A stretch of 64,000 nucleotides of DNA, from positions 4,103,947-4,167,946 of the forward strand of contig OZ244143.1 in NCBI GenBank assembly GCA_965216005.1, read 5' to 3'. This stretch comes from Candidatus Azotimanducaceae bacterium (GTDB lineage Bacteria > Pseudomonadota > Gammaproteobacteria > Pseudomonadales > Azotimanducaceae). The number at the start of each line of letters is the position of its first letter. Position 1 is the first letter of the stretch. The position numbers were made by a program, and so were the translations under genes. Below the pieces are notes generated by a model that was given only the letters and a program-made list of their open reading frames with translations, was not told where the DNA came from and ran no database searches. Of the stretch, positions 25,599-53,326 are shown piece by piece.

Positions 25599-25653
25599 TA
25601 GAAGCGGCCGGCAATAGAAGCGGGCAGGCAATAGAAGCGGGCAGGCAATAGAA
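25599..25653. repeat. 17-bp tandem repeat (GGCAATAGAAGCGGGCA, about 3 copies)
   Basis: Full copies at 25610-25626 and 25627-25643, with partial copies on both sides. Confidence 0.9.
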
Positions 25654-31153: not shown

Positions 31154-31545
<392 letters not shown>

Positions 31546-31593: not shown

Positions 31594-32820
31594 CTAACCC
31601 GCCGCGTACTGCGCAGCGAGCACCGAATACGCGAAACACCGCTCGAGGATGGCGATGTCGGCAGACAGCACATTCGCCTCAGCCATGTACTCCTGCCATA
31701 TGTTCGTCACATTCTGCACATCAGTCGCGATCTGCGTGGTCTGGTCATTGCTCAAGCCAAAGCGCTTGGCGGCGGCGCGCAGATTGTCCAGGCTAGGGAC
31801 GTTGCCGAACGCACCCAGCGCAATGGCGTGTGAACCCTGCAGCCCGGTGTTTGGGACGATGTCGTAGCCGGGCGTTAGTCGATACTCGGCTTCGCCGGCG
31901 CGTTTCAAGAATGCATGGTTGCGCAAGTGATCGTCCGTGTTGCCGATCGCGATGTTGAACAGCATGCGTCGAAACACATCCGCCGCTAGTGCTTCGCTTG
32001 CAGAGCCAATGCGTTTGCCCAGTTGGTAGATCCCAGGATAGGACATCGCGGCTTCGTCGTATTGGCTAATGTCGAACTTGTTGATCAGGGAGGCAACGGA
32101 CACCAGGTGGTGTTGGCGTCCGTCACTGTGATCAAAGCGTTCCACCAGCAGGACGGGGCCATAAGCGGTTTGCGTCAGCAGCACATCTGGCACCTCGATA
32201 CCCGCATCGGCGGCCATGCGCATGCTGGCGTATTCCACTTTGCACATGTCCACCAGATCCGAAGGCCGGCCGAACTTAGCGATCCAGTGTCGGTCCAGAT
32301 GATCGATCAGTGTCTTGGGCCGGGCGCCGCCCAGACCGCTGCCATGAAAGAAGAAGGGCTCCAAGTTGCGATCTACCTCGCGGCCCGCTTCGATATCGTC
32401 GGCGATCCGCTGCAGATGAATCAAATTGTCGAACGGGCGAGGCAGAGGCGTTTTCACTTTATCGGACACTCCTGCCGTAAAGCGCAGCGCACCGACACCT
32501 TCGCCCGACGCCGCCAGGAGAAACTCGACTGAGGTCATCGGTGGCGGCTGGCGAGTCTTGGACAGTTGCCGGCGACCCCACTCGTCCGGACCGGCATCCA
32601 GCAGCACGCCGAAAACGCCCGGTGATTCGCGCGAGCGGGGTGTCGTGTGAACGTCTTCGGTCAACGGCAGGTTGATCGGATCCAGCGCAAACGCGCGCGG
32701 GTGGGTTAAGTACTTCGGCGCATATTTAAAACGCCCCCGTTGTTGGTCGACGATGAGCTGACCGGCTAACACGTAGGTGCCCTGGCCTAGATCGACGTGT
32801 ACGAACAGCTTTTCAGGCAT
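31594..32820 (-). CDS. hipA: HipA-family Ser/Thr kinase toxin
   Basis: HipA N-terminal domain, GSGLGGARPK loop, WIAKF, GNTDDHLRNH, YDIVP. Start overlaps the antitoxin stop (TGATG). Confidence 0.9.
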   Translation of the reverse strand: MPEKLFVHVDLGQGTYVLAGQLIVDQQRGRFKYAPKYLTHPRAFALDPINLPLTEDVHTTPRSRESPGVFGVLLDAGPDEWGRRQLSKTRQPPPMTSVEFLLAASGEGVGALRFTAGVSDKVKTPLPRPFDNLIHLQRIADDIEAGREVDRNLEPFFFHGSGLGGARPKTLIDHLDRHWIAKFGRPSDLVDMCKVEYASMRMAADAGIEVPDVLLTQTAYGPVLLVERFDHSDGRQHHLVSVASLINKFDISQYDEAAMSYPGIYQLGKRIGSASEALAADVFRRMLFNIAIGNTDDHLRNHAFLKRAGEAEYRLTPGYDIVPNTGLQGSHAIALGAFGNVPSLDNLRAAAKRFGLSNDQTTQIATDVQNVTNIWQEYMAEANVLSADIAILERCFAYSVLAAQYAAG

Positions 32821-33167
32821 CAGAACTCCCACTCGTCACGGTTGGTGTGTGGTGTACGGGCTCGGCGACGGGCATCGCTGCGTCCGAGCGACTCGCCCAA
32901 AGTGTCCTGACCCGGGGTCAGCACCGCGTCCAAGGCGGTAGGTAAGCCGTAGATGTCGAGCAGCGCCAGGTAGGCGGATACCGTGATGTTAGTCGCGCCT
33001 CCTTCGACCTTCTTCACGGAACTCTCGGACAATCCTGCCTTTTCGGCAGCCAGCGCCTGCGTCCAGTTGCGGCGCAGCCGCGCCTCTTTCAGGCGCGCAC
33101 CGAGCCCATGCAGGCTACCCAGCGCCGCGTCACTGAGTAAGCTGGCCGATTTTGTCTTGCGAGGCAT
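32820..33167 (-). CDS. XRE-family HTH antitoxin (HipB-like)
   Basis: LKEARLRRNWTQALAAEKAGLS....KVEGG; translationally coupled to hipA. Confidence 0.88.
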   Translation of the reverse strand: MPRKTKSASLLSDAALGSLHGLGARLKEARLRRNWTQALAAEKAGLSESSVKKVEGGATNITVSAYLALLDIYGLPTALDAVLTPGQDTLGESLGRSDARRRARTPHTNRDEWEF

Positions 33168-36354: not shown

Positions 36355-36475
36355 GCGGTTCTCCTTGAGCTAGGTAATCGGTCTGGGCTGCTGTAAACCC
36401 CCCCTAATTTGACCACAATCAAGTGACCACCTCCTCAGTTGTGCCAGCTTTAACGAATATGTGGAGGAGAAACGC

Positions 36476-37657
36476 ATGTCACGCGCACGACTGATTGAGA
36501 TTGCGCGCACCGATCTGGCTCACGGCCGTGAAGGCACCATGGATCAGACCGATGCGATTTACAAAGTCCCTGCTGCGGCTTATTACGACAAGGATCTGTG
36601 GGCGGGGGAAATGCAACAGATCTTCAGGCGGGTGCCACTGATGCTGGCCATGACTGCCGAAGTTCCCGAAGTAGGCGACTACAAGGCACTCGATGCAACG
36701 GGTATGCAAGTACTGATCACCCGAACCAGAAGTCGGCAGGTCAAAGCCTTCGTGAACATGTGCACCCATCGTGGAGCTTGCCTCGTGGATGAGGGCCGAG
36801 GCCGAACGCATAAATTCACCTGCCCCTACCATGCCTGGACCTTCAGCCCGGATGGCGATCTGGTGGCCGTGTATGCGGAAAGTGAATTCGGGGAGTTGGA
36901 TAAGGGCCAGTACGGTCTGACTGAACTGCCTTGTCTCGAAAGAGCGGGTCTGATCTGGGTCATACTGAATCCCGACGCGACGCTCGACATTGACAGTTTC
37001 CTCTGTGGTTACGACGACATGCTCAGCGACTTCGGTTTCGACACGTGGCACTTGCAGGCCACGCAGGTATTGGAGGGTCCCAACTGGAAGGTGGCTTACG
37101 ACGGCTATCTGGATTACTACCACCTACCCATTCTGCATGGTAGATCGTTCGGCACCGACATCGGGCACAAAGCGAACTATTACTTCTGGGGGCCGCACTC
37201 ACACCTCGGCCGACCCGACACCTACTTCGAGCAATATGAGGATCTGCCCGCGGAAGAGTGGCCGCTCGAAAGGCTGCTCGATGGTGTGTGGACCATATTT
37301 CCGCACATCTCCATCGCCAGCTTTCAGGGCGGCGGCCGGTCGGTGATGATTTCACAGCTGTTCCCCGGGGACCGGCCGGAGACATCCATGACCGTTCAGT
37401 ACTACTTGATGGAGAAGCAACCGGTGACGGACGATGACAAGCGGGAGGCGAAAGAGCAGTTCGACTTCCTGAAGTATGTGGTGTCTGAGGAGGATTACAA
37501 AACCGGCATCGCGCTGCAGAAAAACCTCAGCTTGGGCGTACTAGATCATGTGTTATACGGTAAGAACGAAGGTGGTAGTCAGAATTTCCACAAGTGGGTG
37601 GAGGCGATCGTCGGTGCCTCCGACGAGGACCTGCCGAAGTTGTTTCAGACTGGGTGA
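36476..37657 (+). CDS. Rieske non-heme iron oxygenase, alpha subunit
   Basis: CTHRG...CPYHAW Rieske motif; DYYH....H mononuclear iron site. Confidence 0.93.
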   Translation: MSRARLIEIARTDLAHGREGTMDQTDAIYKVPAAAYYDKDLWAGEMQQIFRRVPLMLAMTAEVPEVGDYKALDATGMQVLITRTRSRQVKAFVNMCTHRGACLVDEGRGRTHKFTCPYHAWTFSPDGDLVAVYAESEFGELDKGQYGLTELPCLERAGLIWVILNPDATLDIDSFLCGYDDMLSDFGFDTWHLQATQVLEGPNWKVAYDGYLDYYHLPILHGRSFGTDIGHKANYYFWGPHSHLGRPDTYFEQYEDLPAEEWPLERLLDGVWTIFPHISIASFQGGGRSVMISQLFPGDRPETSMTVQYYLMEKQPVTDDDKREAKEQFDFLKYVVSEEDYKTGIALQKNLSLGVLDHVLYGKNEGGSQNFHKWVEAIVGASDEDLPKLFQTG

Positions 37658-37671
37658 CTCGCAGCCCGGAG

Positions 37672-37716
37672 CCCGCTTCAATACTCGATAATGATCGCAC
37701 CGGCGGGGCAGCTATT
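37672..37716. repeat. 45-bp direct repeat, copy 1 (orphan 3' end of the ferredoxin gene)
   Basis: CCCGCTTCAATACTCGATAATGATCGCACCGGCGGGGCAGCTATT, identical to 41298-41342. Minus strand encodes NSCPAGAIIIEY*. Confidence 0.97.
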
Positions 37717-37778
37717 GGCTTGGCATTATTTTGGCCCTGGGGCGTCGAGTGTCGCCTAGTTCCGGGCTCTGTCGCCGA

Positions 37779-38705
37779 TCAGGTTGCCGTTAGCCACAAT
37801 TTCACCAGATCTCTATCTAGTAGTTCCGATAATGCCTCAACGTCCGTGTGGTACTCGCGCGTGATTGCCGCCCTGATTTCGTCGCTCATGGGTGCGCGCG
37901 GTGCCACCCGGTCGTTCCAGGTACGAACTTTGTTCAGCACGCCCAGTCGTTCAATGCCGAGCAGCGCTTTCGCACGTTCTACCGCCCGCACCGCCATGCC
38001 CGGTGGGCGCATGGACAGGTGCCCCAACAGCCGATTGCGGTGACTGCGGTTTTCATTAGCGCGGGGAAAAGTATCGGGCTCGATCACTGGTAGGTCCAGA
38101 AAGCGCAGTATCCCGACATACTCGCGCCGCGTATCCTCGATGAAATCATCGAACAGTACGACTTTTATTTGCGCCTGTGGAAACTGCTCGTACCAACGAA
38201 CCAACTGCGTGTGATACTTCGCGATCTGATCGTAATACACAACCTTCGGATCACGGTTGCTGCGAGGCAGTTCGAAGCCTTGTTTGCGTGCAGGTAAGAG
38301 TTGCCAGGCGCGTTCGAAGTCGGCTTCCGTTTCGTCACGCAGGTGCAGGTACTGGGCGTGAGCGGAATACACCATGTCTATGGGATTGCGCAGCAGTGCC
38401 AGAATGCGCGCATCGGGGTTGTAAGCCGCTACGTTTGCAGCGGCCTGTTCCGACATCAGGTAGGTATTGGAGGACTCACCAATTGCCATGTGTTGCGTCT
38501 GCACAGAATCAAAGAGACCCTGATACTGCTGCGCTTCGTGGATAGGGCGGTAGTTGGGAAAGTCCGTTGCAAAGAAGTGTGGCTCCTTTGGCACGGTGAT
38601 GAACACATTGGGATGCTCACGCAGGTAGTTGCAAAGGGCGGTCGTGCCCGACTTGGCGGCTCCCACCAAAAAGAAGTTGGCTTTAGGTTGCGCAGGCTGT
38701 GTCAT
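37779..38705 (-). CDS. PAPS-dependent sulfotransferase
   Basis: GAAKSGTT 5'-PSB loop, KEPHFF, GESS..Y, LRNPIDMVYS. Confidence 0.92.
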   Translation of the reverse strand: MTQPAQPKANFFLVGAAKSGTTALCNYLREHPNVFITVPKEPHFFATDFPNYRPIHEAQQYQGLFDSVQTQHMAIGESSNTYLMSEQAAANVAAYNPDARILALLRNPIDMVYSAHAQYLHLRDETEADFERAWQLLPARKQGFELPRSNRDPKVVYYDQIAKYHTQLVRWYEQFPQAQIKVVLFDDFIEDTRREYVGILRFLDLPVIEPDTFPRANENRSHRNRLLGHLSMRPPGMAVRAVERAKALLGIERLGVLNKVRTWNDRVAPRAPMSDEIRAAITREYHTDVEALSELLDRDLVKLWLTAT

Positions 38706-39991
38706 GCGCGCAGCGAAACCAACGTGCTGATGTGCAGGCGGCGGCGCACCGTAACAACACCCAGGATGTTCCACAATGCCGTGGCGGCAGTCGCTGCCAC
38801 AGCCGCACCCTCAATGCCATATAAGCTGATCAAAGGTATGCCCAGTAGCGGGCATGCGATGCAGGCGATCAGCATGTTGCGAGCGGCGGGTTGTTCGTTA
38901 CCGGTCATTAACTGCAACACGCCAACCGAGCCACATAGCGCGTTGATCAGTTGACCCAATAGCAGGATACGCAACGCATTTGCGGCGGCGCGGAAGGGCT
39001 CGCCGAACCAGCCTAGCACCCACTCTGCCTGCCAGCACAGCAGTAGCGCCACCACTGCCGTAAACAGGGTAGAAAAGCGCGCTGCGTTGTGGGCCAGTCG
39101 TTGCATGTTCGCGTGATCGCCCTTGCTGTGTGCGCTGGCGATCATTGGCGAGATGAGTACGTTGATGGCCGCCAGCGCGAAAGAGGCGAGCACAGACAGG
39201 CGCGCAGCCGCGCCGTAGATACCGGCGTGAGCTTCGTCGATGAGGAAACCGACCAGCAGTATGTCGAGCTGGCTGATGACCACGGTGGTGCCGGATACGA
39301 TCAGCAGCGCCCACTGCCCCTGCTGCCACAGGACAGTGTTTTGGGTTGCTGGGAGAACGGACTCGCCTCGCACGGAGGGCAGCAACAGGCGGCGGTAGGC
39401 GATGGCTGTTACCAAGGCGACGCACACCGCAATAGTGCTGAGCAGCAATAGGGTTGCAGCCGATAGCGCGGCATCTGTAGCTGTCAGTACGACGGCGACG
39501 AGCACACCGAATGTCAGCGGCCGTACCAGTTCGTCGGGAAGGCGGGCGTAGATGCCGCGCAAACCCTGATTCTTCGCCTGTGCCTGGGACAGGTTTACCG
39601 TCGCCCACAGCAGCAGCACACCGGCTCCAAATGCGAAGGCATGGCTGGGCCGGTCGCCAGCGAACAGACCGATCAGTAAGAGTGCCAGGACCGATACAGT
39701 GCTGGTTTGCAGCAGTAACCGTCGGCGTGCCCAACGCCAAAGGCCCATCAGGGCTTCACCTTCGTCGTTCCCGTGATATTGACCCGTGAAGCGGGTAAGA
39801 GTGGTATCCAGTCCTTGTCGTGCCACCAGCGCGGCGATAGCGAGACCTGCGGTGACGAGCACGAAAAGACCGTAAACATCGGCAGCTACGTTGCGTGCAA
39901 TGTAGATTTGCACACTTAACGCAACGGCAGCACCGAGTAGTTTTATGCCAAGTACGACGGTACTCGCCCCGGTCAGGAACCGGGCGTTCAT
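38702..39991 (-). CDS. Wzx/MOP-family oligosaccharide flippase
   Basis: More than 12 TMs; DILLVG.....AGIYGAAARL, GIEGAAVAT. Confidence 0.88.
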   Translation of the reverse strand: MNARFLTGASTVVLGIKLLGAAVALSVQIYIARNVAADVYGLFVLVTAGLAIAALVARQGLDTTLTRFTGQYHGNDEGEALMGLWRWARRRLLLQTSTVSVLALLLIGLFAGDRPSHAFAFGAGVLLLWATVNLSQAQAKNQGLRGIYARLPDELVRPLTFGVLVAVVLTATDAALSAATLLLLSTIAVCVALVTAIAYRRLLLPSVRGESVLPATQNTVLWQQGQWALLIVSGTTVVISQLDILLVGFLIDEAHAGIYGAAARLSVLASFALAAINVLISPMIASAHSKGDHANMQRLAHNAARFSTLFTAVVALLLCWQAEWVLGWFGEPFRAAANALRILLLGQLINALCGSVGVLQLMTGNEQPAARNMLIACIACPLLGIPLISLYGIEGAAVAATAATALWNILGVVTVRRRLHISTLVSLRA

Positions 39992-40139
39992 ACTCGAATG
40001 GTCGGTTGCAACAGCATCTGCGCAGCTTAGCATCCGGATATTCTCCGGCCCAAGCTGTCCCGATTTTTGTGCTCGCGATCACAGTTTGACAAGCCGCTAC
40101 GGGGAAACTAGCGTGCTCGGCTTTCAGCAAGGATTCTGA

Positions 40140-41087
40140 GTGTTGCGCAATCCCCATTTCGACGACGACCGTGTCGTCTGGTCCGATAGCTATTCCGGTC
40201 AGTACGAGTCACCTGTTTACAACGAGCAATTCGAGCTGCAATGGAACATTGCGTTCAAGGGGAACCAGGAGTATTTCGACAACCCGGGTACGTCGACTGA
40301 AGACGACTACATTGCCGACCGGGTCTATGAGTGGACAGGTCAGCATCCGCATGGGCGGCAGGATTTCAAATACCCCGGCATGGGTAGCTACGTGATGGAT
40401 AACCCCATCGATCCGGCGCTGATTAAAGGCAAGCGCTGTATCGATGTCGGTTGCGGTATGGGCCGCTGGACACGCACAATGCAGATGATCGGCGCAGCGG
40501 AAGTGCTGTCCGTTGATGTCTCGGAGAGCGGCCTGGCGAGCACTAGTCAGTTCAATCCCAATGTGCTGCGGGCCAACATTCTGAAGCTGCGCGATGAGCA
40601 TCCGGAACTCGTCGGCCAGTTCGACTTTGCCAACCTGTGGGGCGTTGCCATGTGCACGCACGATCCTAAGGAAGCCTTTGCCAGCGCAGCAGCCATGGTG
40701 AAGGACGGTGGTGCGATTTATCTGATGGTGTACGCACCCGAGGGCATCCATAACCGGCGGCTCACGCTGGCGCAGCGCAAACGCTTTCATGAACTGGATT
40801 CGGTTGAAGAACGCCTCGCCTGGGTTGACCGCGTGCAGTCCCGCTGCTGGGACAGCCACTACGCTCTCACCGACAATCTCCTCAATGTTACGCGTAACCT
40901 GCGCGGTTTGCCTAAAGGCAGCAAGATGGGTGTATTGGATATGCTTGAGCCAGTCTACAACTGGGTGATCCCGCTGGAAGTGGTGCACGATTGGATGGCC
41001 GCCAACGGCTTCAGCCAGGTCACAGTGTTGAATCCGCACCAGCAGAACAAAGCGGCGCATCATGTGCTCGGGGTAAAGGCCGCTTAG
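40140..41087 (+). CDS. Class I SAM-dependent methyltransferase
   Basis: CIDVGCGMGRW motif I. Confidence 0.88.
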   Translation: MLRNPHFDDDRVVWSDSYSGQYESPVYNEQFELQWNIAFKGNQEYFDNPGTSTEDDYIADRVYEWTGQHPHGRQDFKYPGMGSYVMDNPIDPALIKGKRCIDVGCGMGRWTRTMQMIGAAEVLSVDVSESGLASTSQFNPNVLRANILKLRDEHPELVGQFDFANLWGVAMCTHDPKEAFASAAAMVKDGGAIYLMVYAPEGIHNRRLTLAQRKRFHELDSVEERLAWVDRVQSRCWDSHYALTDNLLNVTRNLRGLPKGSKMGVLDMLEPVYNWVIPLEVVHDWMAANGFSQVTVLNPHQQNKAAHHVLGVKAA

Positions 41088-41111
41088 GCGCTCTGGCGCG
41101 ACGCGGCGTTA

Positions 41112-41297
41112 TTGGCGTGCGCACAGTCTTGCCAATCCTTGGGCACGGAGGCGCTGAAAGTGTCGCTTCGAACCCTGATCGAAGGGCTGCAGAAGCGGGG
41201 TCAAGAAGTTGATTGTGCGACGATCGCGGGCACGGGGTCTAACTTCTATTCCTTGCTCCCGAATACCACGCGCCATAATTTGGATGCGGCGTCGGAA
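41112..41297 (+). pseudogene. Probable truncated GT4 glycosyltransferase N-terminus
   Basis: SLGTEALKVSLRTLIEGLQKRGQEVDCATIAGTGSNFYSL resembles GT4 starts such as that at 47501; similarity stops at the 45-bp repeat. Confidence 0.45.
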
Positions 41298-41342
41298 CCC
41301 GCTTCAATACTCGATAATGATCGCACCGGCGGGGCAGCTATT
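41298..41342. repeat. 45-bp direct repeat, copy 2 (within the intact ferredoxin 3' end)
   Basis: Identical to 37672-37716. Confidence 0.97.
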
Positions 41343-41495
41343 AGCCGCGGATTGGGCTTCTATCTCCAATTCTTCGGTGACGCCGTCGGCCTTGGCTCTG
41401 GCTTTGTCGTGTTCCCCGATTTCGAACAGCTCAGGATAGAGATTGATGCAGCGGTGATGGGCTTCGCATCGGTCAGGATCGACTCGGCATTTCAT
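41304..41495 (-). CDS. Ferredoxin, [3Fe-4S]-type P450 partner
   Basis: CxxHxxC...CP motif (CEAHHRC, NSCP); start overlaps the P450 stop. Confidence 0.92.
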   Translation of the reverse strand: MKCRVDPDRCEAHHRCINLYPELFEIGEHDKARAKADGVTEELEIEAQSAANSCPAGAIIIEY

Positions 41496-42748
41496 GACAC
41501 ACGCTCCTTAAATTTGTCCTGTGCCGCGTCCGATTGGATCCACAGATAAGCCATCTGGCGCAGCGCTAAGCCCGGTACGTAGTCATAGCTGTCAGCACCG
41601 CGCGCCAATCTGAAATTCTGCCGTTGCGACAACAGAATCTGGAAGGACAGGTTCAGTTCCAGTCTGGCGAGGGGCGCACCCAGGCAGTGATGGGTTGCAT
41701 GGCTGAAGGCCACGTGTGAGCCGGCATTGCCCCTGTCGATATCGAGGGTCTCCGCGTCCGGGAAGTGACGCTCATCGCGGTTGGCTGCGGCAAAGCGCAG
41801 GTGCACGGCGGCCCCTGGCGGAATAGTCACCCCGTGCAGTTTTACCTCTTCCTTCGTGAACCGGTACATACCAGCGGTAGGGGAGTGCAGCCGCAGACAT
41901 TCCTCCACGAACGTCTTAATACGCTTGGGCTGATTGCGCAGCTGACTTTCCAGACCGGGTTCATCGATCATCGCGCACATGGCCATGGCAAGCCCGTTCT
42001 GGGTCGTTTCGTTGGCACCGACGATGGCTTGTTCCGCAAACCCGACAATTTCCTTGGTGGTCAGCGGGCTACCGTCCTCACGCCGGATCTGTATTAGCAG
42101 GGACAGCAGATCGTCTCCTGGATCCAGACGCTTCTTGTCCAGATTCTCAAGAATGTAGTTCTGCAACTTCACGCCTTCTTCTGCGACATACATTTCCTGT
42201 GCCGGTGTCATGGCGTGGGAGTAGGGCAGTACCCAGACGTCGGTAAAGTGCTTGAGCAGTTTATGGTCTGCCAACGGCAGCCCTAAGAGGATCGTCATGA
42301 CGCTCATGGGCAGTGGGAAACAGAATGCGCTCACGAAATCCACCGGTTCATCGGTCTCCAGAGCACCCGTCAGATCTTCGATGAGCGCGCGCAACTGCGG
42401 CTCCCAGCGGCGGATGCGGCTGGACGTAAAAAACGGCTCCACGCGGCTGCGGAAGTCCGTGTGATAGGGTGGATCGGTAGACAAAGGCGTGTAACGCGGC
42501 AAGCCGTTGTCTTCGTAGTACTTCACGGCTGCTTCCGTGCGAAACAGAAAGCCACGATCGGGCTTCTCCATGGAGAAGCGTTTAGAGTCGCGCACGATAT
42601 TACAAATGTCTTCGTAGCGGGTGATGACGTACATGTCGACATCGGCTAAATAGTGGACCGGCGCCTCGTCGCGGAGCAGTCGGTATGCCTCCCACGGGCA
42701 CTTTTGGATCTCGACATTCGACAGATTTATTCTGTTGGCATCCGCCAT
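41492..42748 (-). CDS. Cytochrome P450
   Basis: DPP.HT..R, GANETT I-helix, EECLR ExxR, HHCLGAPLARLE heme ligand. Confidence 0.95.
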   Translation of the reverse strand: MADANRINLSNVEIQKCPWEAYRLLRDEAPVHYLADVDMYVITRYEDICNIVRDSKRFSMEKPDRGFLFRTEAAVKYYEDNGLPRYTPLSTDPPYHTDFRSRVEPFFTSSRIRRWEPQLRALIEDLTGALETDEPVDFVSAFCFPLPMSVMTILLGLPLADHKLLKHFTDVWVLPYSHAMTPAQEMYVAEEGVKLQNYILENLDKKRLDPGDDLLSLLIQIRREDGSPLTTKEIVGFAEQAIVGANETTQNGLAMAMCAMIDEPGLESQLRNQPKRIKTFVEECLRLHSPTAGMYRFTKEEVKLHGVTIPPGAAVHLRFAAANRDERHFPDAETLDIDRGNAGSHVAFSHATHHCLGAPLARLELNLSFQILLSQRQNFRLARGADSYDYVPGLALRQMAYLWIQSDAAQDKFKERVS

Positions 42749-42767
42749 GGCGTTCCCCGCGCGCAAT

Positions 42768-44303
42768 TTAATCCCTCGACAGCCACTCATCATACAGTTT
42801 GTGAAAGTGGCGGGGCTTGGTTTCGCCGTAGTTGGCGAAAATCACCTCATCCAGCGAGTGCAGTCCTTTCTGCACAAACGGTAAGTTTAAGGTGTCCTGG
42901 TTGAACACCTTGGCAAGATGCCCGAGTTGGGGGGCTTCCACGTAGTCGTCCTCGAGGTCCAGCCACTGCATTTTGGCAGCGGGCGGTCGGGGTTCACCGG
43001 CCGGTGTCGGCCACATGAAAAAGCATTCGTGGATGCACTCTTCGGGATTGTCGCCGTAGGGGCGGAATCGATAAAAAATCTGGTTGAACGAACCCCAGGG
43101 ACTGATGTTGGGAAAAACGCTGTAGTAGATCGGGTCTAACAGCTCCGCATCGCTGACCTCGTCCATGACATCACCCAACGTCTTGCGCAGTTCCTCACGC
43201 CGGACCGCTGCAGCGGCGGCGCGCTTCTCTGCGAAATCGCCTGTTGGAACATTGGATGGCAACTCGTCCATGCCTTCCACTAAGCGTCCGCCGACCCAAT
43301 TGCACAGATGGATGTCGGCATGGAACTTGTCGCCATCCAGATGATTGCCCCAATCGTCGAAGTAGCCCACCTGTTTGTCTGGGGTGGTGACCTTGACCCG
43401 GCCTTCCTCTACCCGCTCGTAAATGCTGCCGGTCAGCTCGTGGCGCTGCCGGGTGAAGGGAGTCGCTTCCATGTAGGGATGTTCCGCCAGCTCCGTCGGT
43501 ACGTGGGGGCTACCGATGAGATGGGCCGACAACGCTCGGGAGAAGTTGCCGAAAATGTCGTATTTAGAATTGGCGCATCCGAGGCTCCCGAGCAGGGTGG
43601 GGTGTGTTGCTACGGAATGATAGGCTTCGGCGAAAGCCTCGTGTGCGACCTTCCAGTTACACGGCAGACGCTTGGCGACATGTACCGCCTTATAGCGCCG
43701 CTCCATGGGGAGGTGCGTGAAGTGTTCGTCCAAGTTACCGAGAAAATCCGCCAACGGTTCGCAATCGGGGTCGGGGTTGATGAACACGAATCCACCCCAG
43801 CGGTCGACCCTCACTTGAGGTAGGGAGTGGGTTGCCTTCGAGACGGTGGGAAAGTCCCAGTGGCAGGGCACTTCCTCCAGAGTGCCCTCCAGCGACCAAG
43901 CCCAGCCGTGGAAAGGGCAACGGAAATTGTGCAAGGCTTGCTCGTCCTGATGCAGCAGTTGGCGTCCCCTGTGCAAACACGCGTTCGGGAAGGCGTGGAA
44001 CCCGTCCTTTGCGCTGCGTACTACGATGTAGGACAGATCGGCGATGTCGTAGACGATAGCGTCGCCGACGTTAGGGATGTCGTCCTCGTGGCAAGCCATC
44101 TGCCACACCCGCTTCCAGAGACGTTCCTTCTCCAACTCGTGGAATTCTCTGGAATAGTAGACCTTGGGGTCGACGATTGTAGGACCCGGAGGTAGGGGAT
44201 TATCGACTCGGAGAATGTCCCTGACAGGATGGGAATCCCTGTCGAGCACTTCGTTGTAGCTGATTCCGGCTGACCGGTCGGTACCCGTAACCGTTTCCAC
44301 CAT
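42768..44303 (-). CDS. Rieske non-heme iron oxygenase, alpha subunit (long form)
   Basis: CLHRG...CPFHGW; EAYH....H; QD..NL. Confidence 0.93.
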   Translation of the reverse strand: MVETVTGTDRSAGISYNEVLDRDSHPVRDILRVDNPLPPGPTIVDPKVYYSREFHELEKERLWKRVWQMACHEDDIPNVGDAIVYDIADLSYIVVRSAKDGFHAFPNACLHRGRQLLHQDEQALHNFRCPFHGWAWSLEGTLEEVPCHWDFPTVSKATHSLPQVRVDRWGGFVFINPDPDCEPLADFLGNLDEHFTHLPMERRYKAVHVAKRLPCNWKVAHEAFAEAYHSVATHPTLLGSLGCANSKYDIFGNFSRALSAHLIGSPHVPTELAEHPYMEATPFTRQRHELTGSIYERVEEGRVKVTTPDKQVGYFDDWGNHLDGDKFHADIHLCNWVGGRLVEGMDELPSNVPTGDFAEKRAAAAAVRREELRKTLGDVMDEVSDAELLDPIYYSVFPNISPWGSFNQIFYRFRPYGDNPEECIHECFFMWPTPAGEPRPPAAKMQWLDLEDDYVEAPQLGHLAKVFNQDTLNLPFVQKGLHSLDEVIFANYGETKPRHFHKLYDEWLSRD

Positions 44304-44524
44304 GACTACCTCCTCCCCTGCTGAGAACATTCAATCCATGAGAGTGTAGTGTCATGATGCGGACGGGAAATTGACTTCGATCAAGTGGTCTGCGGCACCA
44401 GCTTGTGATCGATGCCCCAGAATAGCTGTGCGACTCACGCTAGCGTAGACGATGAGAGACGGCCGGTAGCGGATGCCGGTTAGAGAGAGGGCCCACACGG
44501 ACGGCCATCACCGGAGTACATCCA

Positions 44525-46129
44525 ATGGGCGCACGTGGTGTGTTGCTGTTCATGTGGGTGAGTGTGTCGGTCCCAGCCTTTGCCGAACACCCTAAGCGCG
44601 ACCTAGAGAAGTTGTCAGAACGTCCGACGCTTGACTTCACATCCGACAAGAATCGTTACGAAGCGGGTGAGCGTGCGACGCTCAAATGGACTTCGTCCAA
44701 CACCAGACGCTGTCGTGCGCGAGGTGACTGGCGGGGCAGACGACCGACGGAGGGTTCGTTCACGACGCCGCCGCTGGATGCTAATAGCATTTTCAAGTTG
44801 CGTTGCCGTGGACCCGCAGGCAGAGTGGTGCGCCGTTTGCGAATTCGGGTAGAACCGCCAACGGTCACACCGGCGCCTCAACCTGAGCCGATTCCCCCAC
44901 CGCCGTTTCCGGAGCCACCACAGGCGCCAACGGTGTCGTTGAGTGTCGACAATACCCACCTAGCCAGCGGCTCGGCAACCACTGTTCGGTGGTCTTCCTC
45001 CAGTGCGACATCATGTCATGCCTCGGGTGATTGGACCGGTAGTCAGGCTGTCAACGGCCGGTACGACACCGGCGGTCTGTTTGCAGACCACACATATGAG
45101 TTGACTTGTGATGGGCTCGGCGGGCGCGCGAGCGACAAAGTCACAGTCGAAGTCGAGTCGCCGCCGACGGTGAGTCTCGAGGCTGAATCAGTGGTCGTGT
45201 CGTCCGGTAGTCCCGCGAATCTGTTTTGGGCTTCTTCAGGCGCAGACCGCTGTACGGCTAGCGGTGGCTGGGAGGGTGACAAGCCAGTCGACGGCAGTCA
45301 ACGCAGCGATCTAATCGAAGACACCACGACGTTCACGCTGACGTGCGTGAACGATTTCGGTACCGAGAGTGCGTCGGTGACCGTGGGTGTCAATCGTGTA
45401 GAGGAACCCTCGGTTGAGATATCGGCTGATCGCACCAGTGTAGGCGAAGGTGAGTCCGTCAACGTTTCGTGGACCTCGGCACATGTCGACAGTTGCAACG
45501 CATCCGGGGACTGGTCGGGTTCGAAGCTGCCGGCGGGCAGTTATCGAACGGCGGCGCTCAGGACAACGAGCACGTTTACGATCAATTGTGACGGACCCGG
45601 CGGTCGAGTGAGTGACACCGTGGCCGTGTCGGTGAGTACGCCACCCACCGTGAGTATCGCTGTGGGAGATCAGGCGGTTGATGTCGGTGCGAACACGACG
45701 CTGTCGTGGAGTTCGAGAAACGCAGACCGTTGCACGGCGAGCGGTGGTTGGGAGGGGCCTCAGACGCTTAACGGTATGGTCTCAGTGGGCCCCATCGATA
45801 CCGCGACCAGCTTCTCGCTCACTTGCGAAGGGCCGAGTGGTACGGCCGTGGCGATCGCGTCGGTCGGTGTCAACGCTCGACTGACGGTCAATTGGCAACC
45901 GCCGACCGAAAATACTGACGGGAGTCAGGTGACAACGCTCATGTGGTATCGAATTCTCTGGGGCACGACATCCGGTAGCTATTCGGATCAAGTGACGGTA
46001 GACGACGGAGCGAGAACGTCACATACGCTTGCAGTACCGCCGGGGGATTACTACGTGGTGATGACAGTAACCGATGACACGGGTCAGGAGAGTGCTTATT
46101 CGAACGAGGTTAAGCTCGTCGCTCAATGA
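44525..46129 (+). CDS. Secreted protein with five Cys-paired Ig/PKD-like repeats and a C-terminal FN3-like domain
   Basis: Signal peptide; five W.S....C.A.G.W.G...C repeats; Pro-rich linker; W.PP.EN.DG and SAYSNEV FN3-like end. Confidence 0.85.
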   Translation: MGARGVLLFMWVSVSVPAFAEHPKRDLEKLSERPTLDFTSDKNRYEAGERATLKWTSSNTRRCRARGDWRGRRPTEGSFTTPPLDANSIFKLRCRGPAGRVVRRLRIRVEPPTVTPAPQPEPIPPPPFPEPPQAPTVSLSVDNTHLASGSATTVRWSSSSATSCHASGDWTGSQAVNGRYDTGGLFADHTYELTCDGLGGRASDKVTVEVESPPTVSLEAESVVVSSGSPANLFWASSGADRCTASGGWEGDKPVDGSQRSDLIEDTTTFTLTCVNDFGTESASVTVGVNRVEEPSVEISADRTSVGEGESVNVSWTSAHVDSCNASGDWSGSKLPAGSYRTAALRTTSTFTINCDGPGGRVSDTVAVSVSTPPTVSIAVGDQAVDVGANTTLSWSSRNADRCTASGGWEGPQTLNGMVSVGPIDTATSFSLTCEGPSGTAVAIASVGVNARLTVNWQPPTENTDGSQVTTLMWYRILWGTTSGSYSDQVTVDDGARTSHTLAVPPGDYYVVMTVTDDTGQESAYSNEVKLVAQ

Positions 46130-47051: not shown

Positions 47052-47504
47052 ATGAGCGCCAATCGATTGCGCGGAGTGTCGGCATTAAACCGCGAGATAC
47101 TGCGCGGCATGCTGATGGTCTTTCTGTTTGCGGTCTTTGTCGCGGCTATCGGTGCTGCCAAAGAAGTAGCCATAGCGTGGCACTACGGCGTCGGGGCGAC
47201 GGTCGACGCCTACCCATTTCTCTTCACCTTGGCACAGTGGCCGCTCGGCTTGTTGGCCACTGTGTTCACTGTTACTTTGGTTCCGCTGGTTGCCAATTTG
47301 CGCGTTTCCGATGCCGGTGGACTGGCATCGTTTCAATCGCAAGTGTTGGGCGGTATGTTGTTGCCGGGCTTTGCCATTGGTGTGCTCGTAGTGTTTGCGA
47401 TTCTGGTGGTGGAAAAAGTGCGGCTGCGAGGTTTGTTACTGGCCACCGCGATTGTCTATTTCGTCTCCTGTGTGCACTGTTTAGCACACCTTCGCCGCTG
47501 GTGA
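47052..47504 (+). pseudogene. MurJ/MOP-like flippase with a large in-frame internal deletion
   Basis: N-terminus GAAKEVAIAWHYGVG..VDAY is MurJ-like and joins directly to a C-terminus-like GLLLATAIVY. Only 150 aa; stop overlaps the next start (GTGA). Confidence 0.7.
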
Positions 47505-48625
47505 ACGTTGCGGTGCACATTCACTGTCTTGCGGGGGGCGGTGCCGAGCGTATTGCTGCATTGCTGTGTAGCCAGCTGGCCGAACGAGGTCATCGAGTAC
47601 TCTTGATTACGCAACTACCCGCTGACCCCGGTGATTACCCTGTCGATGTGCGGGTGGAGCGAATCAGTATCGGTGGCACAGATGTGACGAATGCAGGTTG
47701 GCGTTGGTTACGGATGTTGCGAAGAGTGGTGCGATTAAGGACCGCGCTTAGGCAGTTCGAGGCAGAGGTTGTGTTGGGTTTTATGACGACCTCCGCGCTG
47801 TATGTCGCCATGGCAAGTGTTGCTTCTCGTGTGAAGGCGGTGTGTTGTGAAAGGGTGGATCCGAAGCAACAGAGGCTGAGCGCGGGCGCGAGCCGATTGA
47901 GAAAGTGGCTGTACCCACGAGCAGAACATGTAGTCGTACAGACTGAGGGCGCACTCGCTTGGTTAGAAGCCGAGATTCCCATGGCGACCGGTTGCGTGAT
48001 CCCCAACCCGATTCAGTATCCGCTCACTGAATTGCCTCCAATTCTACAACCCGAAGTCGTGCTCGAGGCAGGCGCCTCGCTGGTGCTGGGCGTGGGTCGG
48101 TTGGACCACCAGAAGGGGTTTGATCGATTGATCGAAGCCTTCGTCATGCTCGCTGCGGAGTTTCCGTTAGCCGAGTTGGTGATTCTAGGTGAAGGCGAAA
48201 TGCGAGCCGGGCTCGAGGCCCTGATCGAGGCGCGCGAGCTGGCGGATCGAATCCATCTGGTGGGTCGTGTGGGTAATCTATCAGCCTGGTACGGGCGGGC
48301 TGAGCTTTTTGTGCTGTCCTCACGTTATGAGGGATTTCCCAACGCGTTGGCGGAAGCGATGGCACACGGCTGTGCGGTGTTGGCCACCGATTGCGACTTC
48401 GGTCCCGACGATCTGATTGAGAACGGACACAGCGGTGTTCTAGCGGATGCCGATACGGCAGAAGCGTTGAGCGAAGCGATGCGACGGTTGCTTTCGGATG
48501 CTGCATTGCGCGTTACGCTCGGTACAAACGCTCGGACCGTGCGCGAGCACTATGACGTTCACAAGGTCATCGATCGGTGGGAAACATTGCTCCTAGGGCA
48601 GGACGGATCGGTGGTGGAGTCTTGA
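47501..48625 (+). CDS. GT4 glycosyltransferase (PglH/PglJ-like)
   Basis: GGGAER, GRLDHQKG, SRYEGFPNALAEAMAHG. Confidence 0.92.
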   Translation: MNVAVHIHCLAGGGAERIAALLCSQLAERGHRVLLITQLPADPGDYPVDVRVERISIGGTDVTNAGWRWLRMLRRVVRLRTALRQFEAEVVLGFMTTSALYVAMASVASRVKAVCCERVDPKQQRLSAGASRLRKWLYPRAEHVVVQTEGALAWLEAEIPMATGCVIPNPIQYPLTELPPILQPEVVLEAGASLVLGVGRLDHQKGFDRLIEAFVMLAAEFPLAELVILGEGEMRAGLEALIEARELADRIHLVGRVGNLSAWYGRAELFVLSSRYEGFPNALAEAMAHGCAVLATDCDFGPDDLIENGHSGVLADADTAEALSEAMRRLLSDAALRVTLGTNARTVREHYDVHKVIDRWETLLLGQDGSVVES

Positions 48626-49707
48626 ACGTTGTTTTCGTAATCGGTTCGCTTCGCGGTGGCGGTGCAGAACGACAGGTGCGGTATCTCGCCCGATCGATGA
48701 GTGCACTTGGCGATCAGGTGACCATTGCGGTCATCGAGCGTGGTCAGCACCCGACTGCGATCGATGCAGTGCCGGTTGTGCCGCTGCGCGGTGTCGGTGA
48801 CTCGTGGATAAAAGCGGTGGCGCGTTTGCGAGTGCTTGCCGGAGACGCCGATGTCATTTATAGCTGGATGGACATTGCCAATGTCATTGCGGTGTTGGCT
48901 ACGATTAAGTTGCCAGTTCCGTTAGTCTGGGGATTGCGGAGCAGCGGCATGAACCACGGCATGGTGGCACGATGCGGTTTCTTGGCTGCTCGATGGTTGT
49001 CTTATAAAGCCGCGCTGGCGATCAGCAATTCTCAAGCTGTGCAGAGTTTCTATCGCACGGCAGGCTTCTCGCCGCGGGGGTGGCAGGTCATCGCCAATGG
49101 CGTCGACACTCGGCAGTTCGCGCCGAGTACGGCGCGGCCGTCGGCTGCGGACAACGCCGTGGTCGGCATGGTCGCCCGGGCACAGCCATACAAGCGTTAC
49201 GACTTGTTCTTCGAAATGGTGAGGTTGCTGGACGAGCGTTTTACCGGCGTGCGCTGGATTGTCGCGGGATTGGGTGCGCACGCATCGCATCCCGAGTTTC
49301 GCCAACTCCTGGATCGGTACGGCGTGACTGACCGCGTGCAGGCATTGGGTGAAGTCGGCGATGTTGCGGAAGTAGTCGCCGGCCTCGACATCACGGTGTG
49401 CTGTTCTGATTTCGAGGGTTCGTCCAACAGTGTGCTGGAAGCCCTGTCTTGTGGCGTGCCGGTGGTTGCGTTTCCGGTGGGGGATGCGGAAAGCATGCTG
49501 AGCAATTGCGGGATAATCGTGCGTGAACGCAGCGCCGCAGCGTTAGCGGAGGCGGTGGCTCAACTACTCGACGATCCGGAACTGCGGGGTAGTTTGGGCG
49601 TTGCAGCACGCCAACGAGCAGTGAGTCAGTACAGCCTCGATGCGCTCACAGAGCGCACAAGAGCTATTTTAGAGCAGACTGTACAGTGCGCTGGGAGCGA
49701 TCGCTGA
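48622..49707 (+). CDS. GT4 glycosyltransferase
   Basis: GGGAER, NGVD, EGSSNSVLEALSCG. TTG start overlaps the upstream stop. Confidence 0.92.
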   Translation: MNVVFVIGSLRGGGAERQVRYLARSMSALGDQVTIAVIERGQHPTAIDAVPVVPLRGVGDSWIKAVARLRVLAGDADVIYSWMDIANVIAVLATIKLPVPLVWGLRSSGMNHGMVARCGFLAARWLSYKAALAISNSQAVQSFYRTAGFSPRGWQVIANGVDTRQFAPSTARPSAADNAVVGMVARAQPYKRYDLFFEMVRLLDERFTGVRWIVAGLGAHASHPEFRQLLDRYGVTDRVQALGEVGDVAEVVAGLDITVCCSDFEGSSNSVLEALSCGVPVVAFPVGDAESMLSNCGIIVRERSAAALAEAVAQLLDDPELRGSLGVAARQRAVSQYSLDALTERTRAILEQTVQCAGSDR

Positions 49708-51623
49708 TGTGTGGCATCGCCGGATTTTGTGTCGCACTCGGCGCGTCGCCCGACGAGGGTGTACTGCGCAGCATGGGACACGCACTGGTTCAGCGTGGGC
49801 CGGACAGCGAAGGCATCTGGATCGATGCCAACGTCGGACTGGCGCACCAACGGCTTGCCGTCATCGATCTGTCGGTGGAGGGTCACCAACCGATGGTGAG
49901 CGAGGACGGTCGTTTGGTGCTGGTGTTCAATGGGGAGATTTACAACTTCGAGGCACTGCGTTCCCGTCTTCCTGCCACGCAGTACCGGGGCCGCAGTGAT
50001 ACCGAGGTGCTATTGCGGGCGCTACAGGAGTGGGGAGTTGAGAAGACCGTCCCTGAGTTGGTGGGCATGTTCGCGTTTGCCTTGTTCGATCGCACCACCG
50101 GTCGATTGACGCTGGTGAGGGACCGGTTAGGCATCAAACCGCTCTACTACGGGCGCCACGAAGGGCGGTTTCTGTTTGCCTCCGAGTTGACCGCCATCGA
50201 AGCTGCAGTTTCAAGCCGTCCGCGGGTATCTCGCGACAGTCTTGCATTGATGATGCGTCACAATCATGTACCGGCGCCTTACTGCATCTATGAAGATTTC
50301 TATAAGCTGCCACCGGCCAACATTCTGCATATCGATACCCGGTCCGATGGCTTTCAAGTCACCGGTTCGCGGGTGTTTTGGTCACCCCAAGCAGCGCTCG
50401 AGGCTGACGTTGCAATGAGCGATGTCGGTTGGCAGCAGGCGCTGCACGAGCGCTTACGTGAGGCGGTGCGGGTGCGTTTGGTCAGCGATGTGCCGCTAGG
50501 CGGATTCCTGTCGGGCGGCATCGATTCCACGCTGGTGGTGGCGTTGATGCAGGAGCAGTCGGAAAGGCGTGTCAGCACCTACACGATTGGCTTCGAGGAC
50601 GAGGCACTGAACGAGGCCGAATTCGCCAGACAAACGGCGAAGCACCTGGGTACGGATCACCATGAACTCTATCTAAATCACAGTCACGTGCTAGCCGCGG
50701 TGAGCGAGTTACCCCGATTGTGCGACGAACCCTTCGCCGATCAATCGATTCTACCGACATTCCTGTTATGTCAGATGGCAAGGCGCGATGTCACCGTGGC
50801 CCTGTCTGGCGACGGCGGCGATGAAATCATGTGGGGGTATCAACGTTATCCCACGCGGGAGCGCTTGGACCGGCTGCGTAACTGGGTGCCTGGGTTGCTG
50901 CGGCCCGTCGCTTCCCAGATGCTGGGCAGTAAGTTCCTGGCTCAAACCCTCGGTATGTTGCCCACGCCCAAGGCGTTGGGTCGCGCTTCGCGTCTTGCCG
51001 ACAAGTTACACATGTCTGCACGGTTGTTGTCCAGCGAAGACGATGATGAACGGTATCGCTACCTGATGTCTCATTGGAAAAACCCGACCGAGTTGGTGCC
51101 GGGCGCGGAGGAGCCGCCCACAGTGTATAGCCACCCACCGGCCTGGGCGCAGGAACTACCGGTTTGGCAACGCATGTGTGTTTTGGATCTGCTGGCCTAC
51201 CTGCCCAACGATTGCCTGACGAAGGTGGACCGGGCCAGCATGGCGGTGGGCTTGGAAGCTAGGGTGCCTTTATTGGATCACCGGGTAGTCGAACTGGCTT
51301 ATCAGTTGCCGGAACATCTTGTGCGCACCGGCGGGAGGGGGAAACTCTTGTTACGCAGCGTTCTCGATCACTATGTACCACGAGCCATGATGGAGCGACC
51401 GAAGTCCGGCTTTGGCGTGCCCTTGGCAGACTGGCTGCGCGGTCCGTTGCGAGGTTGGGCGGAGGACCTTCTGAGTGAGCCGAGCTTGGAACGCAGTGAG
51501 TTGTTTAACGTATCGCTGGTGACGGATTTACACCGGCAGCACCAAAACGGTGTCGCGGACTGGTCGGCATACCTGTGGGATGTGCTGATGTTTCAGAACT
51601 GGGTGCAGTCGCGATGGGCTTGA
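49707..51623 (+). CDS. asnB: Asparagine synthase (glutamine-hydrolysing), glycan-locus amidotransferase type
   Basis: MCGIAG, HQRL, NGEIYN, DRLGIKPLYY, LSGGIDS, SGDGGDE, KVDRASM. Confidence 0.94.
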   Translation: MCGIAGFCVALGASPDEGVLRSMGHALVQRGPDSEGIWIDANVGLAHQRLAVIDLSVEGHQPMVSEDGRLVLVFNGEIYNFEALRSRLPATQYRGRSDTEVLLRALQEWGVEKTVPELVGMFAFALFDRTTGRLTLVRDRLGIKPLYYGRHEGRFLFASELTAIEAAVSSRPRVSRDSLALMMRHNHVPAPYCIYEDFYKLPPANILHIDTRSDGFQVTGSRVFWSPQAALEADVAMSDVGWQQALHERLREAVRVRLVSDVPLGGFLSGGIDSTLVVALMQEQSERRVSTYTIGFEDEALNEAEFARQTAKHLGTDHHELYLNHSHVLAAVSELPRLCDEPFADQSILPTFLLCQMARRDVTVALSGDGGDEIMWGYQRYPTRERLDRLRNWVPGLLRPVASQMLGSKFLAQTLGMLPTPKALGRASRLADKLHMSARLLSSEDDDERYRYLMSHWKNPTELVPGAEEPPTVYSHPPAWAQELPVWQRMCVLDLLAYLPNDCLTKVDRASMAVGLEARVPLLDHRVVELAYQLPEHLVRTGGRGKLLLRSVLDHYVPRAMMERPKSGFGVPLADWLRGPLRGWAEDLLSEPSLERSELFNVSLVTDLHRQHQNGVADWSAYLWDVLMFQNWVQSRWA

Positions 51624-51685: not shown

Positions 51686-53326
51686 ATGGGATTCATATCG
51701 CAACGCGCCAATGCGATGCTGTTCGCGAGCGTTTTCCTGCTCGTCGCCTGCGGCCAGAACGAGAACACAGTCACTACTGAACCGGCCACAGACCTGGTAA
51801 CGACCTCGGAAGATCCAGTGGCGTCTACGCAGTACGGTCGTGTGCGTGGATCGCAAATCGATGAGATCTTTGCCTTCAAAGGGGTTCGCTACGGGGCCGA
51901 CACGTCCACCACCCGATTTGCAGCACCGGCGCCCCCCGATTCCTGGAGAGAGGTGCATGACGCTACGGCGTATGGAGCTTCCTGCCCACAAACGCCGACC
52001 GGTAACCCGGGTGGTCTGTTTACCTCATGGCGGCCGGACCCCGCACCGGCACTGAGCGAAGATTGTCTATTTCTCAATGTCTGGACGCCGGGATTGGCGG
52101 ACGGCGGCAAGCGTGCGGTGATGGTCTGGCTGCATGGGGGTGGTTTTGCCAGCGGCAACGGCTCGTCGCTTGCCTATGAAGGGACCCGTCTGGCAAAGCG
52201 CGGTGACGTTGTGGTCGTCACGATCAATCACCGTCTGAATATCTATGGCTACATGGCGCTAAACCACTACGGCAAGGGATTCGAGGATTCGGCGGTAGCC
52301 GGCGTGTTGGATATGGTGCAAGCGCTCGAATGGGTCAGAGACAATATCGAGGCGTTTGGCGGCGATCCAGACACGGTCATGATCTTTGGCGAATCCGGTG
52401 GGGGTGCGAAGGTTTCGACATTAATGAACACACCTGCCGCGCAAGGGCTGTTTCACCGCGCCGTGGTTCAATCGGGTGCGATGCTGCAATTCCCCGATGC
52501 CGCCAACGCGCGAGCGGCTGCGGATGCAGTCGTGGCGAATCTCGGTTTGACTGCCGCAACGATTGAGCAAATAAAATCGGTGCCCGTTACGGTGCTGGAC
52601 GCTGCACGTGAGGGTACGAGCGCGGGTAATGCGCCGACCATCGATAATCGAACTCTGCATCGTCACCCGTTCGAACCCGACGCATCGCCCACGGGCGCCC
52701 AGGTACCGATGATGCTCGGTACCAATCGCACCGAGAGTTCGCTTTTTCTCGGTGCACAGAATCCCGCCACCTTCGAGCTTGACTGGGCTGGGGCGAAAGC
52801 CGCACTGGCTGCAACTTATCCCAACAAGGACATTGAGGCGATCGTCGCAGGTTATCGCGAGTTAGATCCCGAAGCCGACCCCAGTGACGTGTTCTTCGAG
52901 GCGACGACGGATGCCCGTTGGGCAGCCGGACACGTCACTCAGGCCGAACGCAAAACGGCCCAAAGTAGCGCGCCCACCTATCTCTATCTCTTCGATTGGG
53001 ATACGCCTGTAGACGGAGGAAAGTGGCGTTCGCCCCATGCACTCGAGATCGGTTTCGTGTTCGATAACGTTGCGAATTCTGAAAGCATTTCCGGCATCGG
53101 AGACGAGCAGCAGAAGGTGGCTGACATCCTCTCGGAAACGTGGATTGCATTTGCGAAAACCGGAAATCCAAACAACGCTCAGATCCCGGTGTGGCCTCAG
53201 TACGATACTGAGTCTCGACCTGTCATGGTGTTCGACGTTGATCCCGCCGTCGTAAACGATGCGCGCGGAGTTCAGCGCCAACTTCTGAACGACAGCGAGG
53301 CGTACGGCAATCGGTATGAGCGATAA
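51686..53326 (+). CDS. Type B carboxylesterase, probable lipoprotein
   Basis: SEDCLFLNVW, HGGGF, GESGG catalytic Ser, H.LEI; lipobox LVAC. Confidence 0.93.
   Translation: MGFISQRANAMLFASVFLLVACGQNENTVTTEPATDLVTTSEDPVASTQYGRVRGSQIDEIFAFKGVRYGADTSTTRFAAPAPPDSWREVHDATAYGASCPQTPTGNPGGLFTSWRPDPAPALSEDCLFLNVWTPGLADGGKRAVMVWLHGGGFASGNGSSLAYEGTRLAKRGDVVVVTINHRLNIYGYMALNHYGKGFEDSAVAGVLDMVQALEWVRDNIEAFGGDPDTVMIFGESGGGAKVSTLMNTPAAQGLFHRAVVQSGAMLQFPDAANARAAADAVVANLGLTAATIEQIKSVPVTVLDAAREGTSAGNAPTIDNRTLHRHPFEPDASPTGAQVPMMLGTNRTESSLFLGAQNPATFELDWAGAKAALAATYPNKDIEAIVAGYRELDPEADPSDVFFEATTDARWAAGHVTQAERKTAQSSAPTYLYLFDWDTPVDGGKWRSPHALEIGFVFDNVANSESISGIGDEQQKVADILSETWIAFAKTGNPNNAQIPVWPQYDTESRPVMVFDVDPAVVNDARGVQRQLLNDSEAYGNRYER

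Follow-up and report, generated by a model that had tools for sequence, protein, structure and literature searches.

The locus described here raises the question of how a three-gene cassette for glycan export and tailoring came to lie between two copies of the 3′ end of a ferredoxin gene. It is located in a stretch of 64 kb from the genome of a Candidatus Azotimanducaceae bacterium, hereafter called the window. One copy of the gene end completes an intact ferredoxin gene (fdx); across the cassette from it lies the second copy, an orphan. The two copies form a 53-nt direct repeat (37667-37719 and 41293-41345) with 51 of 53 positions identical and a spacing of 3626 nt. Scars of this type are already known, and this one adds a further example at an unusual gene. 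We give a probability of somewhat under one half, roughly 45%, to the reading that one Campbell-type crossover at the 3′ end of fdx inserted the cassette and left a recombinase-free segment resembling a cis-mobilizable element (CIME).

The duplicated gene end and the genes between its copies

The features of the locus, in window coordinates, are the following.

36461-37657, plus strand: Rieske398, the alpha subunit of a Rieske non-haem iron oxygenase, an open reading frame (ORF) of 398 aa (Pfam Rieske and Ring_hydroxyl_A)
37667-37719, minus strand: left repeat copy, the orphan fdx 3′ end with the last 13 codons, the stop and 11 nt of flank
37779-38774, minus strand: sulfotransferase (Pfam Sulfotransfer_3/_1)
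38702-40033, minus strand: Wzx-like polysaccharide flippase of the multidrug/oligosaccharidyl-lipid/polysaccharide (MOP) superfamily, 443 aa (Pfam Polysacc_synt)
40140-41087, plus strand: class I S-adenosylmethionine (SAM)-dependent methyltransferase, 315 aa, divergent from the flippase
41088-41292, no strand: non-coding gap of 205 nt between the methyltransferase stop and the right repeat copy
41293-41345, minus strand: right repeat copy, the functional fdx 3′ end with 11 nt of downstream flank
41304-41495, minus strand: fdx, a single-cluster ferredoxin of 63 aa (Pfam Fer4_15/Fer4_13)
41492-42793, minus strand: cytochrome P450, called product of 418 aa with its start near 42748
42768-44330, minus strand: Rieske520, a second Rieske oxygenase alpha subunit of about 511 aa, in one operon with P450 and fdx
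47501-51623, plus strand: two genes of glycosyltransferase family 4 (GT4) and an XrtA/PEP-CTERM-type amidotransferase gene, probable functional partners of the cassette

Exact repeats of at least 18 nt were counted across the whole window. The scan returned a 45-mer pair (37672-37716, identical to 41298-41342), a repeat of 17-nt period at 25.6 kb, a tandem array at a tRNA gene, and nothing else; the 45-mer pair is thus the sole dispersed exact repeat of this size in 64 kb. An earlier note, made from the sequence, had described the same 45 bp, which we found to extend to the 53 nt given above. Even when up to three mismatches were allowed, the 45-mer had two matches in the window, and it had none in 100 dinucleotide-preserving shuffles, which rules out a chance repeat. 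The two mismatches of the longer repeat are found at positions 5 and 51 of 53, where the left copy carries G/G and the right copy A/A; the change at position 51 is a synonymous third-position difference (GCT/GCC, Ala). Local and global alignments of the flanks revealed no similarity outside the 53 nt on either side, and the edges of the repeat are therefore sharp.

The right copy comprises the fdx stop codon (41304-41306), the last 12 codons (NSCPAGAIIIEY; 13 with the synonymous edge codon) and 11 nt of 3′ flank. As the earlier note had recognised, it includes a Cys-Pro motif, and this motif is invariant in an alignment of five fdx homologues. In a tblastn search the left copy matched residues 51-63 of the ferredoxin alone, with 100% identity (37719-37681). 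It is convergent with Rieske398, and its orphan stop codon (37678-37680) lies 20 nt past the Rieske398 stop (37657), the distance already given in the note. The NCBIfam matches of Rieske398 itself all fell far under cut-off. Because the orphan frame contains an in-frame stop three codons upstream of the repeat, the left copy lies outside any gene. That stop, together with the lack of anything similar past the 53 nt, also excludes an old fdx pseudogene. We likewise rejected an RNA element or a terminator within the repeat, since fold z-scores ranged from +0.02 to +1.5, Rfam gave no match and no terminator-like site was seen. The repeated part is the most conserved region of fdx in all relatives, and a swapped-in fdx 3′ end is thus not distinguishable by comparison.

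The exact cores are separated by 3581 nt containing three genes, whose assignment by the note to a sulfotransferase, a flippase and a methyltransferase was upheld by Pfam. The sulfotransferase probably starts with the ATG at 38705, in an ATGA overlap with the flippase stop codon; a homologue in a related contig (L014; 47% identity) aligns from residue 31 of the ORF. The probable glycosyltransferase remnant that had also been listed did not hold up: the 205-nt gap gave no Pfam match at E≤10, and tblastn with seven GT4 proteins returned only fragments with E values of at least 0.02-0.3 in a tiny search space. A GT4 remnant in the gap is therefore without support, and no trace of a second methyltransferase was seen there. 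The cassette genes have a GC content of 0.565-0.603, a third-position GC content (GC3) of 0.63-0.71 and a codon-usage distance of 0.144-0.154, all within the range of 37 window genes. Separately, we observed that the methyltransferase has a paralogue (P0005, 73% identity) elsewhere on the 5.47-Mb source contig, with a depth of 15 in metagenome run X2, similar to that of the cassette.

Junctions in metagenome unitigs and counterparts in relatives

Support for the two junctions was sought in Logan unitigs from five metagenome runs of one study (X1-X4 and X6), built with k=31, a value shorter than the 45-nt repeat. The left junction is crossed by a 313-nt unitig of X3 (37508-37820) and by a 7606-nt unitig of X4, both of which connect the Rieske gene with the cassette across the repeat and show 0 differences. 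The right junction is crossed by a 5188-nt unitig of X6, which links the cassette across the repeat to fdx and P450, also with 0 differences. The depth was zero on the fdx side in X4 and on the Rieske side in X6, which argues against a structure of the type 'empty site plus circle' in those runs. In X1 and X2 the graphs are interrupted at the 45-mer; in X1, exactly four flanks touch the repeat, which corresponds to two copies and no third. The window proteins are on record from a single contig of 5.47 Mb. Misassembly, a possibility raised in the note, is unlikely, both junctions being present in independent unitigs, and we take the structure as real. The depths of the cassette and its flanks were 4.2 / 2.8 / 3.4 in X1 and 19 / 16-28 / 9.7 in X2, with no consistent difference across runs. 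A cassette-free subpopulation deduced from depth ratios was rejected because the runs disagree.

As a separate observation, about 239 nt within Rieske398 (36839-37079) are exchanged for other sequence in unitigs of X1-X3, in one case at a depth of 186 in X2. These exchanges probably reflect conserved Rieske motifs that other, abundant organisms share, and no variant of the locus.

The Rieske520-P450-fdx operon, of which fdx is the last gene and in which the fdx start overlaps the P450 stop, recurs at 72-89% aa identity in four related contigs, in full in L001, L021 and L022 and as P450-fdx only in L002. The gene that follows fdx differs each time: a convergent glutathione S-transferase (GST) gene in L001, a GST gene in L002, a zinc alcohol dehydrogenase gene in L021 and a 170-aa ORF in L022, never Rieske398. 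Conversely, none of the Rieske398 relatives (L003-L012, 52-86% identity) has fdx downstream. The closest relatives share 83-86% aa identity and their neighbouring genes differ; the same gene order in relatives, which the note had considered as a counter-argument, was thus not encountered, since they show other orders. No DNA similarity was detected between relatives past the fdx stop codon, and L001 and L002 contain no second copy of the fdx end.

The combination of sulfotransferase, flippase and divergent methyltransferase recurs in L014, between a flavin reductase gene and a luciferase-like gene, with identities of 47%, 36% and 78%, respectively (36-37% for the flippase in the matching position) and with two methyltransferases in tandem. 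Because it recurs in another context there, the module behaves, on evolutionary time scales, as a transferable unit that changes context. More distant homologues of the methyltransferase are found in glycan clusters that also contain genes for GT4 enzymes, Wzx and sulfotransferases, and in L016-L018 they adjoin GT4 genes. Judged from these gene neighbourhoods, the glycan label of the cassette genes is sound. Furthermore, a contig of a metagenome-assembled genome (L020) carries a GT4-GT4-amidotransferase block syntenic with that of the window (53-73% aa identity), which in the window starts 6 kb to the right of the cassette. In L020 a flippase and methyltransferases lie directly upstream of the block, but they belong to other families and are not homologous to those of the window. 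Because of this synteny, the cassette plausibly supplies the flippase and the tailoring enzymes of a local glycan pathway and is no foreign body in the oxygenase cluster.

A proposed single crossover and its rivals

From the repeat, its limits and the gene content we infer the following course of events. The segment 37720-41292 would represent a three-gene glycan export and tailoring module, in which the flippase is predicted to be translationally coupled to the sulfotransferase and the methyltransferase is divergent. An incoming circular DNA would have carried a copy of the fdx end of 50-53 nt, about 96% identical to that of the chromosome. A single reciprocal crossover between the chromosomal fdx end and the copy on the circle would then have inserted the module and produced hybrid copies on both sides. 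The right copy would keep fdx intact, including the third cluster ligand in the Cys-Pro motif, and the left copy would be the displaced orphan beside Rieske398. The distribution of the mismatches, G/G on the left and A/A on the right, would result from a crossover inside the 45-nt core between two partners that differed at both positions. Hence one crossover could explain the bracketing repeats, the intact gene, the orphan, the sharp edges and the mismatch pattern. If the crossover was site-specific, the enzyme would have acted in trans or would since have been lost, giving a CIME-like state; a RecA-type crossover at short homology is equally compatible with the data. The donor was most likely of the same lineage, or the same genome, and no foreign island, because the composition of the cassette is native and its presumed pathway partners lie only 6 kb away. 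We also count in favour of the crossover that a tRNA-Glu array in the window is likewise a duplicated gene 3′ end.

Several results weigh against this reading. Among the cassette genes and about 55 larger ORFs of the window, Pfam identified no recombinase, integrase, transposase, excisionase or phage family; for the interior, this agrees with the integrase-free content reported in the note. The hypothetical attP was reconstructed as 317 nt running from the methyltransferase stop through gap, repeat and gap to the sulfotransferase stop, and its repeated 8- and 9-mers, taken as candidate arm-type motifs, occurred at the level of shuffles. No match to plasmids or viral contigs was found for the segment, and neither its composition nor its codon usage is foreign when compared with the 37 window genes. 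The unitigs of X1 showed no third copy of the repeat and no attP. An empty Rieske398/fdx junction was found in no relative (L001-L012, L021 and L022), at a distance at which synteny outside the operons is lost, and no repeats flank the L014 module. Finally, recombination is deduced here from one scar, a single instance. Thus nothing found shows that the 3.6-kb block is, or ever was, a mobile element. Of the interpretation offered in the note, the anatomy of a 3′-end insertion, the recombinase-free interior and the glycan cargo stand; a ferredoxin attB and a decayed or trans-mobilised island have nothing in their favour beyond the repeat.

The anatomy was compared with that of known systems. 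In Escherichia coli, e14 is inserted in the 3′ end of the protein-coding gene icd, and a C-terminal fragment, icdC, is displaced (PMC13626634). Here too the repeats bracket the insert, one of them completing the intact gene and the other being an orphan 3′ end. As for e14 or phage 21 in icd, the target gene is kept intact since the insert supplies or duplicates its 3′ end, and the fragment is displaced to the far end. The two ends are near-identical in both cases, with few and partly synonymous differences (PMC13626634). However, e14 is a prophage of 15 kb that encodes an integrase and has been shown to excise, whereas the present segment measures 3.6 kb and holds only cargo genes and no recombinase. 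A segment of this layout without recombinase is what is called a CIME (PMC5704250). Such an element keeps attL and attR and has no genes for integration or transfer; with the bracketing repeats as putative att sites, and without detectable mobility genes, the segment would fit this description. In contrast, a CIME descends from an integrative and conjugative element (ICE) or an integrative and mobilizable element (IME), and its att sites can be used by the integrase of a related element; here the scanned window ORFs, plasmids, viral contigs and the X1 unitigs yielded no related element, no integrase and no third att copy, the interior is devoid of mobility-gene remnants and the composition is native. 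Xer-dependent elements flanked by dif-like sites of 28 nt (integrative mobile elements exploiting Xer, IMEX) resemble the segment in that direct repeats bracket them and no recombinase is encoded within them. Yet the present repeat is not dif-like and is positioned in a gene end, not at the terminus: its best match to the sequence that we take to be E. coli dif was 14/28, a value reached by 8% of shuffles. Additive flexible genomic islands, with accretion of cassettes next to tRNA genes, are known in marine bacteria. They share with this locus a small cargo-only segment, often glycan-related, duplicated 3′ gene ends and a variable region, with orphan tRNA-Glu ends 6 kb to the left. They differ from it in that the target here is a ferredoxin gene and not a tRNA gene and that no integrase is nearby.

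The serious rival is a local rearrangement without any mobile element, in which the orphan would be a rearrangement scar and not an att site; we regard it as possible, though rather unlikely. By a first route, the cassette and the GT4-GT4-amidotransferase block would have formed one glycan locus; the Rieske520-P450-fdx operon would have come to lie within it by relocation or duplication and then have lost a part by deletion. By a second, a break beside Rieske398 would have been filled during repair with a short copy templated by the fdx end. The gene order of L020, where the syntenic block is directly preceded by a flippase and methyltransferases, favours such a history, but those genes are not homologous to the cassette genes. 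The GT4 genes adjoining the methyltransferase homologues in L016-L018 also point in this direction, as does the observation that, without the oxygenase operon, the methyltransferase would be co-directional with the downstream genes. The operon is moreover conserved as a unit while both of its flanks vary from relative to relative, and the native composition of the cassette and the absence of a recombinase from the scanned window ORFs are in keeping with a rearrangement. Against this, the repeat brackets the cassette and none flanks the operon, and a gene for a secreted repeat protein and a short-chain dehydrogenase/reductase (SDR) gene also separate the operon from the GT4 genes. A rearrangement agrees well with the functional neighbourhood. 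Each route takes at least two events (duplication plus deletions) versus one crossover, and leaves unexplained why the repeats enclose the cassette. In addition, the repeat spans the gene from its interior to just past the stop and leaves fdx intact, which is expected for an insertion at a gene end and would be coincidental for filler DNA.

We consider it improbable that the cassette is active and mobilised in trans by a recombinase of the tyrosine or serine type whose gene lies elsewhere in the 5.47-Mb genome and which uses the fdx 3′ end as attB; the cassette would then be a minimal mobile unit made up of cargo only. It is no more probable that reversible excision switches the export and the sulfation or methylation of a surface glycan (exopolysaccharide) and leaves the P450 electron-transfer chain intact. 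The anatomy of the repeat and the type of cargo would suit such a system, and the second duplicated gene end, at the nearby tRNA-Glu, suggests past integrase activity in the region. Nevertheless, no recombinase was found in the window, no arm-type sites were recognised, no third flank adjoins the repeat in X1, and the cassette of L014 is devoid of such repeats; the depths of cassette and flanks, inconsistent across X1 and X2, give no evidence of heterogeneity. The small ORFs of the 205-nt gap had no Pfam match that would indicate a recombinase, and the region of the attP and the repeat folds no better than its shuffles.

An assembly artefact, in which the true genome would read Rieske398-R-fdx (R being the repeat) and the cassette would lie elsewhere or on a circle and be joined through the 45-mer, is very improbable: the breaks in the k=31 graphs of X1 and X2 are ambiguous by themselves, but the X3, X4 and X6 unitigs pass through the junctions with the opposite flank at zero depth in X4 and X6, the source contig measures 5.47 Mb, and every modern read exceeds the 45 nt of the repeat. 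Insertion by a transposon or an insertion sequence (IS) was rejected because no inverted repeats link the cassette ends, no transposase was found, and the duplication of 45-53 nt is far longer than the short target-site duplications that are known.

If the crossover reflects a real integration, the P450-linked ferredoxin gene would join the few protein-coding genes known to take up insertions at their 3′ ends, and a flippase and tailoring module would be movable as a three-gene unit without its own recombinase. This would bear on the origin of surface-polysaccharide diversity in marine Gammaproteobacteria. If the structure is only a rearrangement scar, it would be an ordinary feature of a variable region. 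The perfect 45-nt repeat makes the cassette deletable by simple recombination with fdx left intact, so that strains with and without the cassette may coexist.

The surroundings of the segment

To the right of the Rieske520-P450-fdx operon, which no repeats flank, the window carries the gene of the secreted repeat protein and the SDR gene, followed by the GT4, GT4 and amidotransferase genes, and farther right by genes for a PEP-CTERM protein and a glycosyltransferase of family 2 (GT2). The secreted protein (44525-46129, plus strand, 534 aa) has no Pfam match; it shows about five immunoglobulin (Ig)-like repeats, a recurring C..SG.W.G motif and an end resembling a fibronectin type III (FN3) domain, and sits between the oxygenase operon and the glycan genes.

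Two observations concern the relatives of Rieske398. In L005 (6231-9170) and L006 (3040-4568), a carboxylesterase gene lies directly upstream of the Rieske398 homologue and divergent from it, its product being 53-57% identical to the COesterase of the window. The gene of the latter (51686-53326) is 14 kb from Rieske398, with the cassette, the oxygenase operon and the glycan genes in between. In a short low-GC metagenome contig (L013, 1-1150), the last 34 Rieske398-like codons (76% identity) stand beside the start of a P450-like gene on the opposite strand, and may represent a further orphaned gene end or the remains of a decayed gene.

A distance of 6 kb separates the tRNA-Glu array from the fdx repeat to its right. 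The last 20 nt of tRNA-Glu (ttc; 31154-31229) and the downstream sequence form a 152-nt tandem repeat of 2.2 copies, 99% identical and reaching 31545. It includes two orphan tRNA-Glu 3′ ends, at 31362-31412 (51 nt, 100%) and at 31514-31545 (32 nt, 100%), and its spacer contains two hairpin-forming palindromes, with no integrase nearby. The array looks like a set of att-type scars. Immediately past it lies a gene for a HipA-like toxin kinase (31594-32832, minus strand; HipA_C and Couple_hipA), and the region from this gene rightwards may be a variable island. The 17-nt-period tandem repeat (25610-25653; GGCAATAGAAGCGGGCA, about 2.6 copies) is located at the junction of a luciferase-like gene and a GNAT gene.

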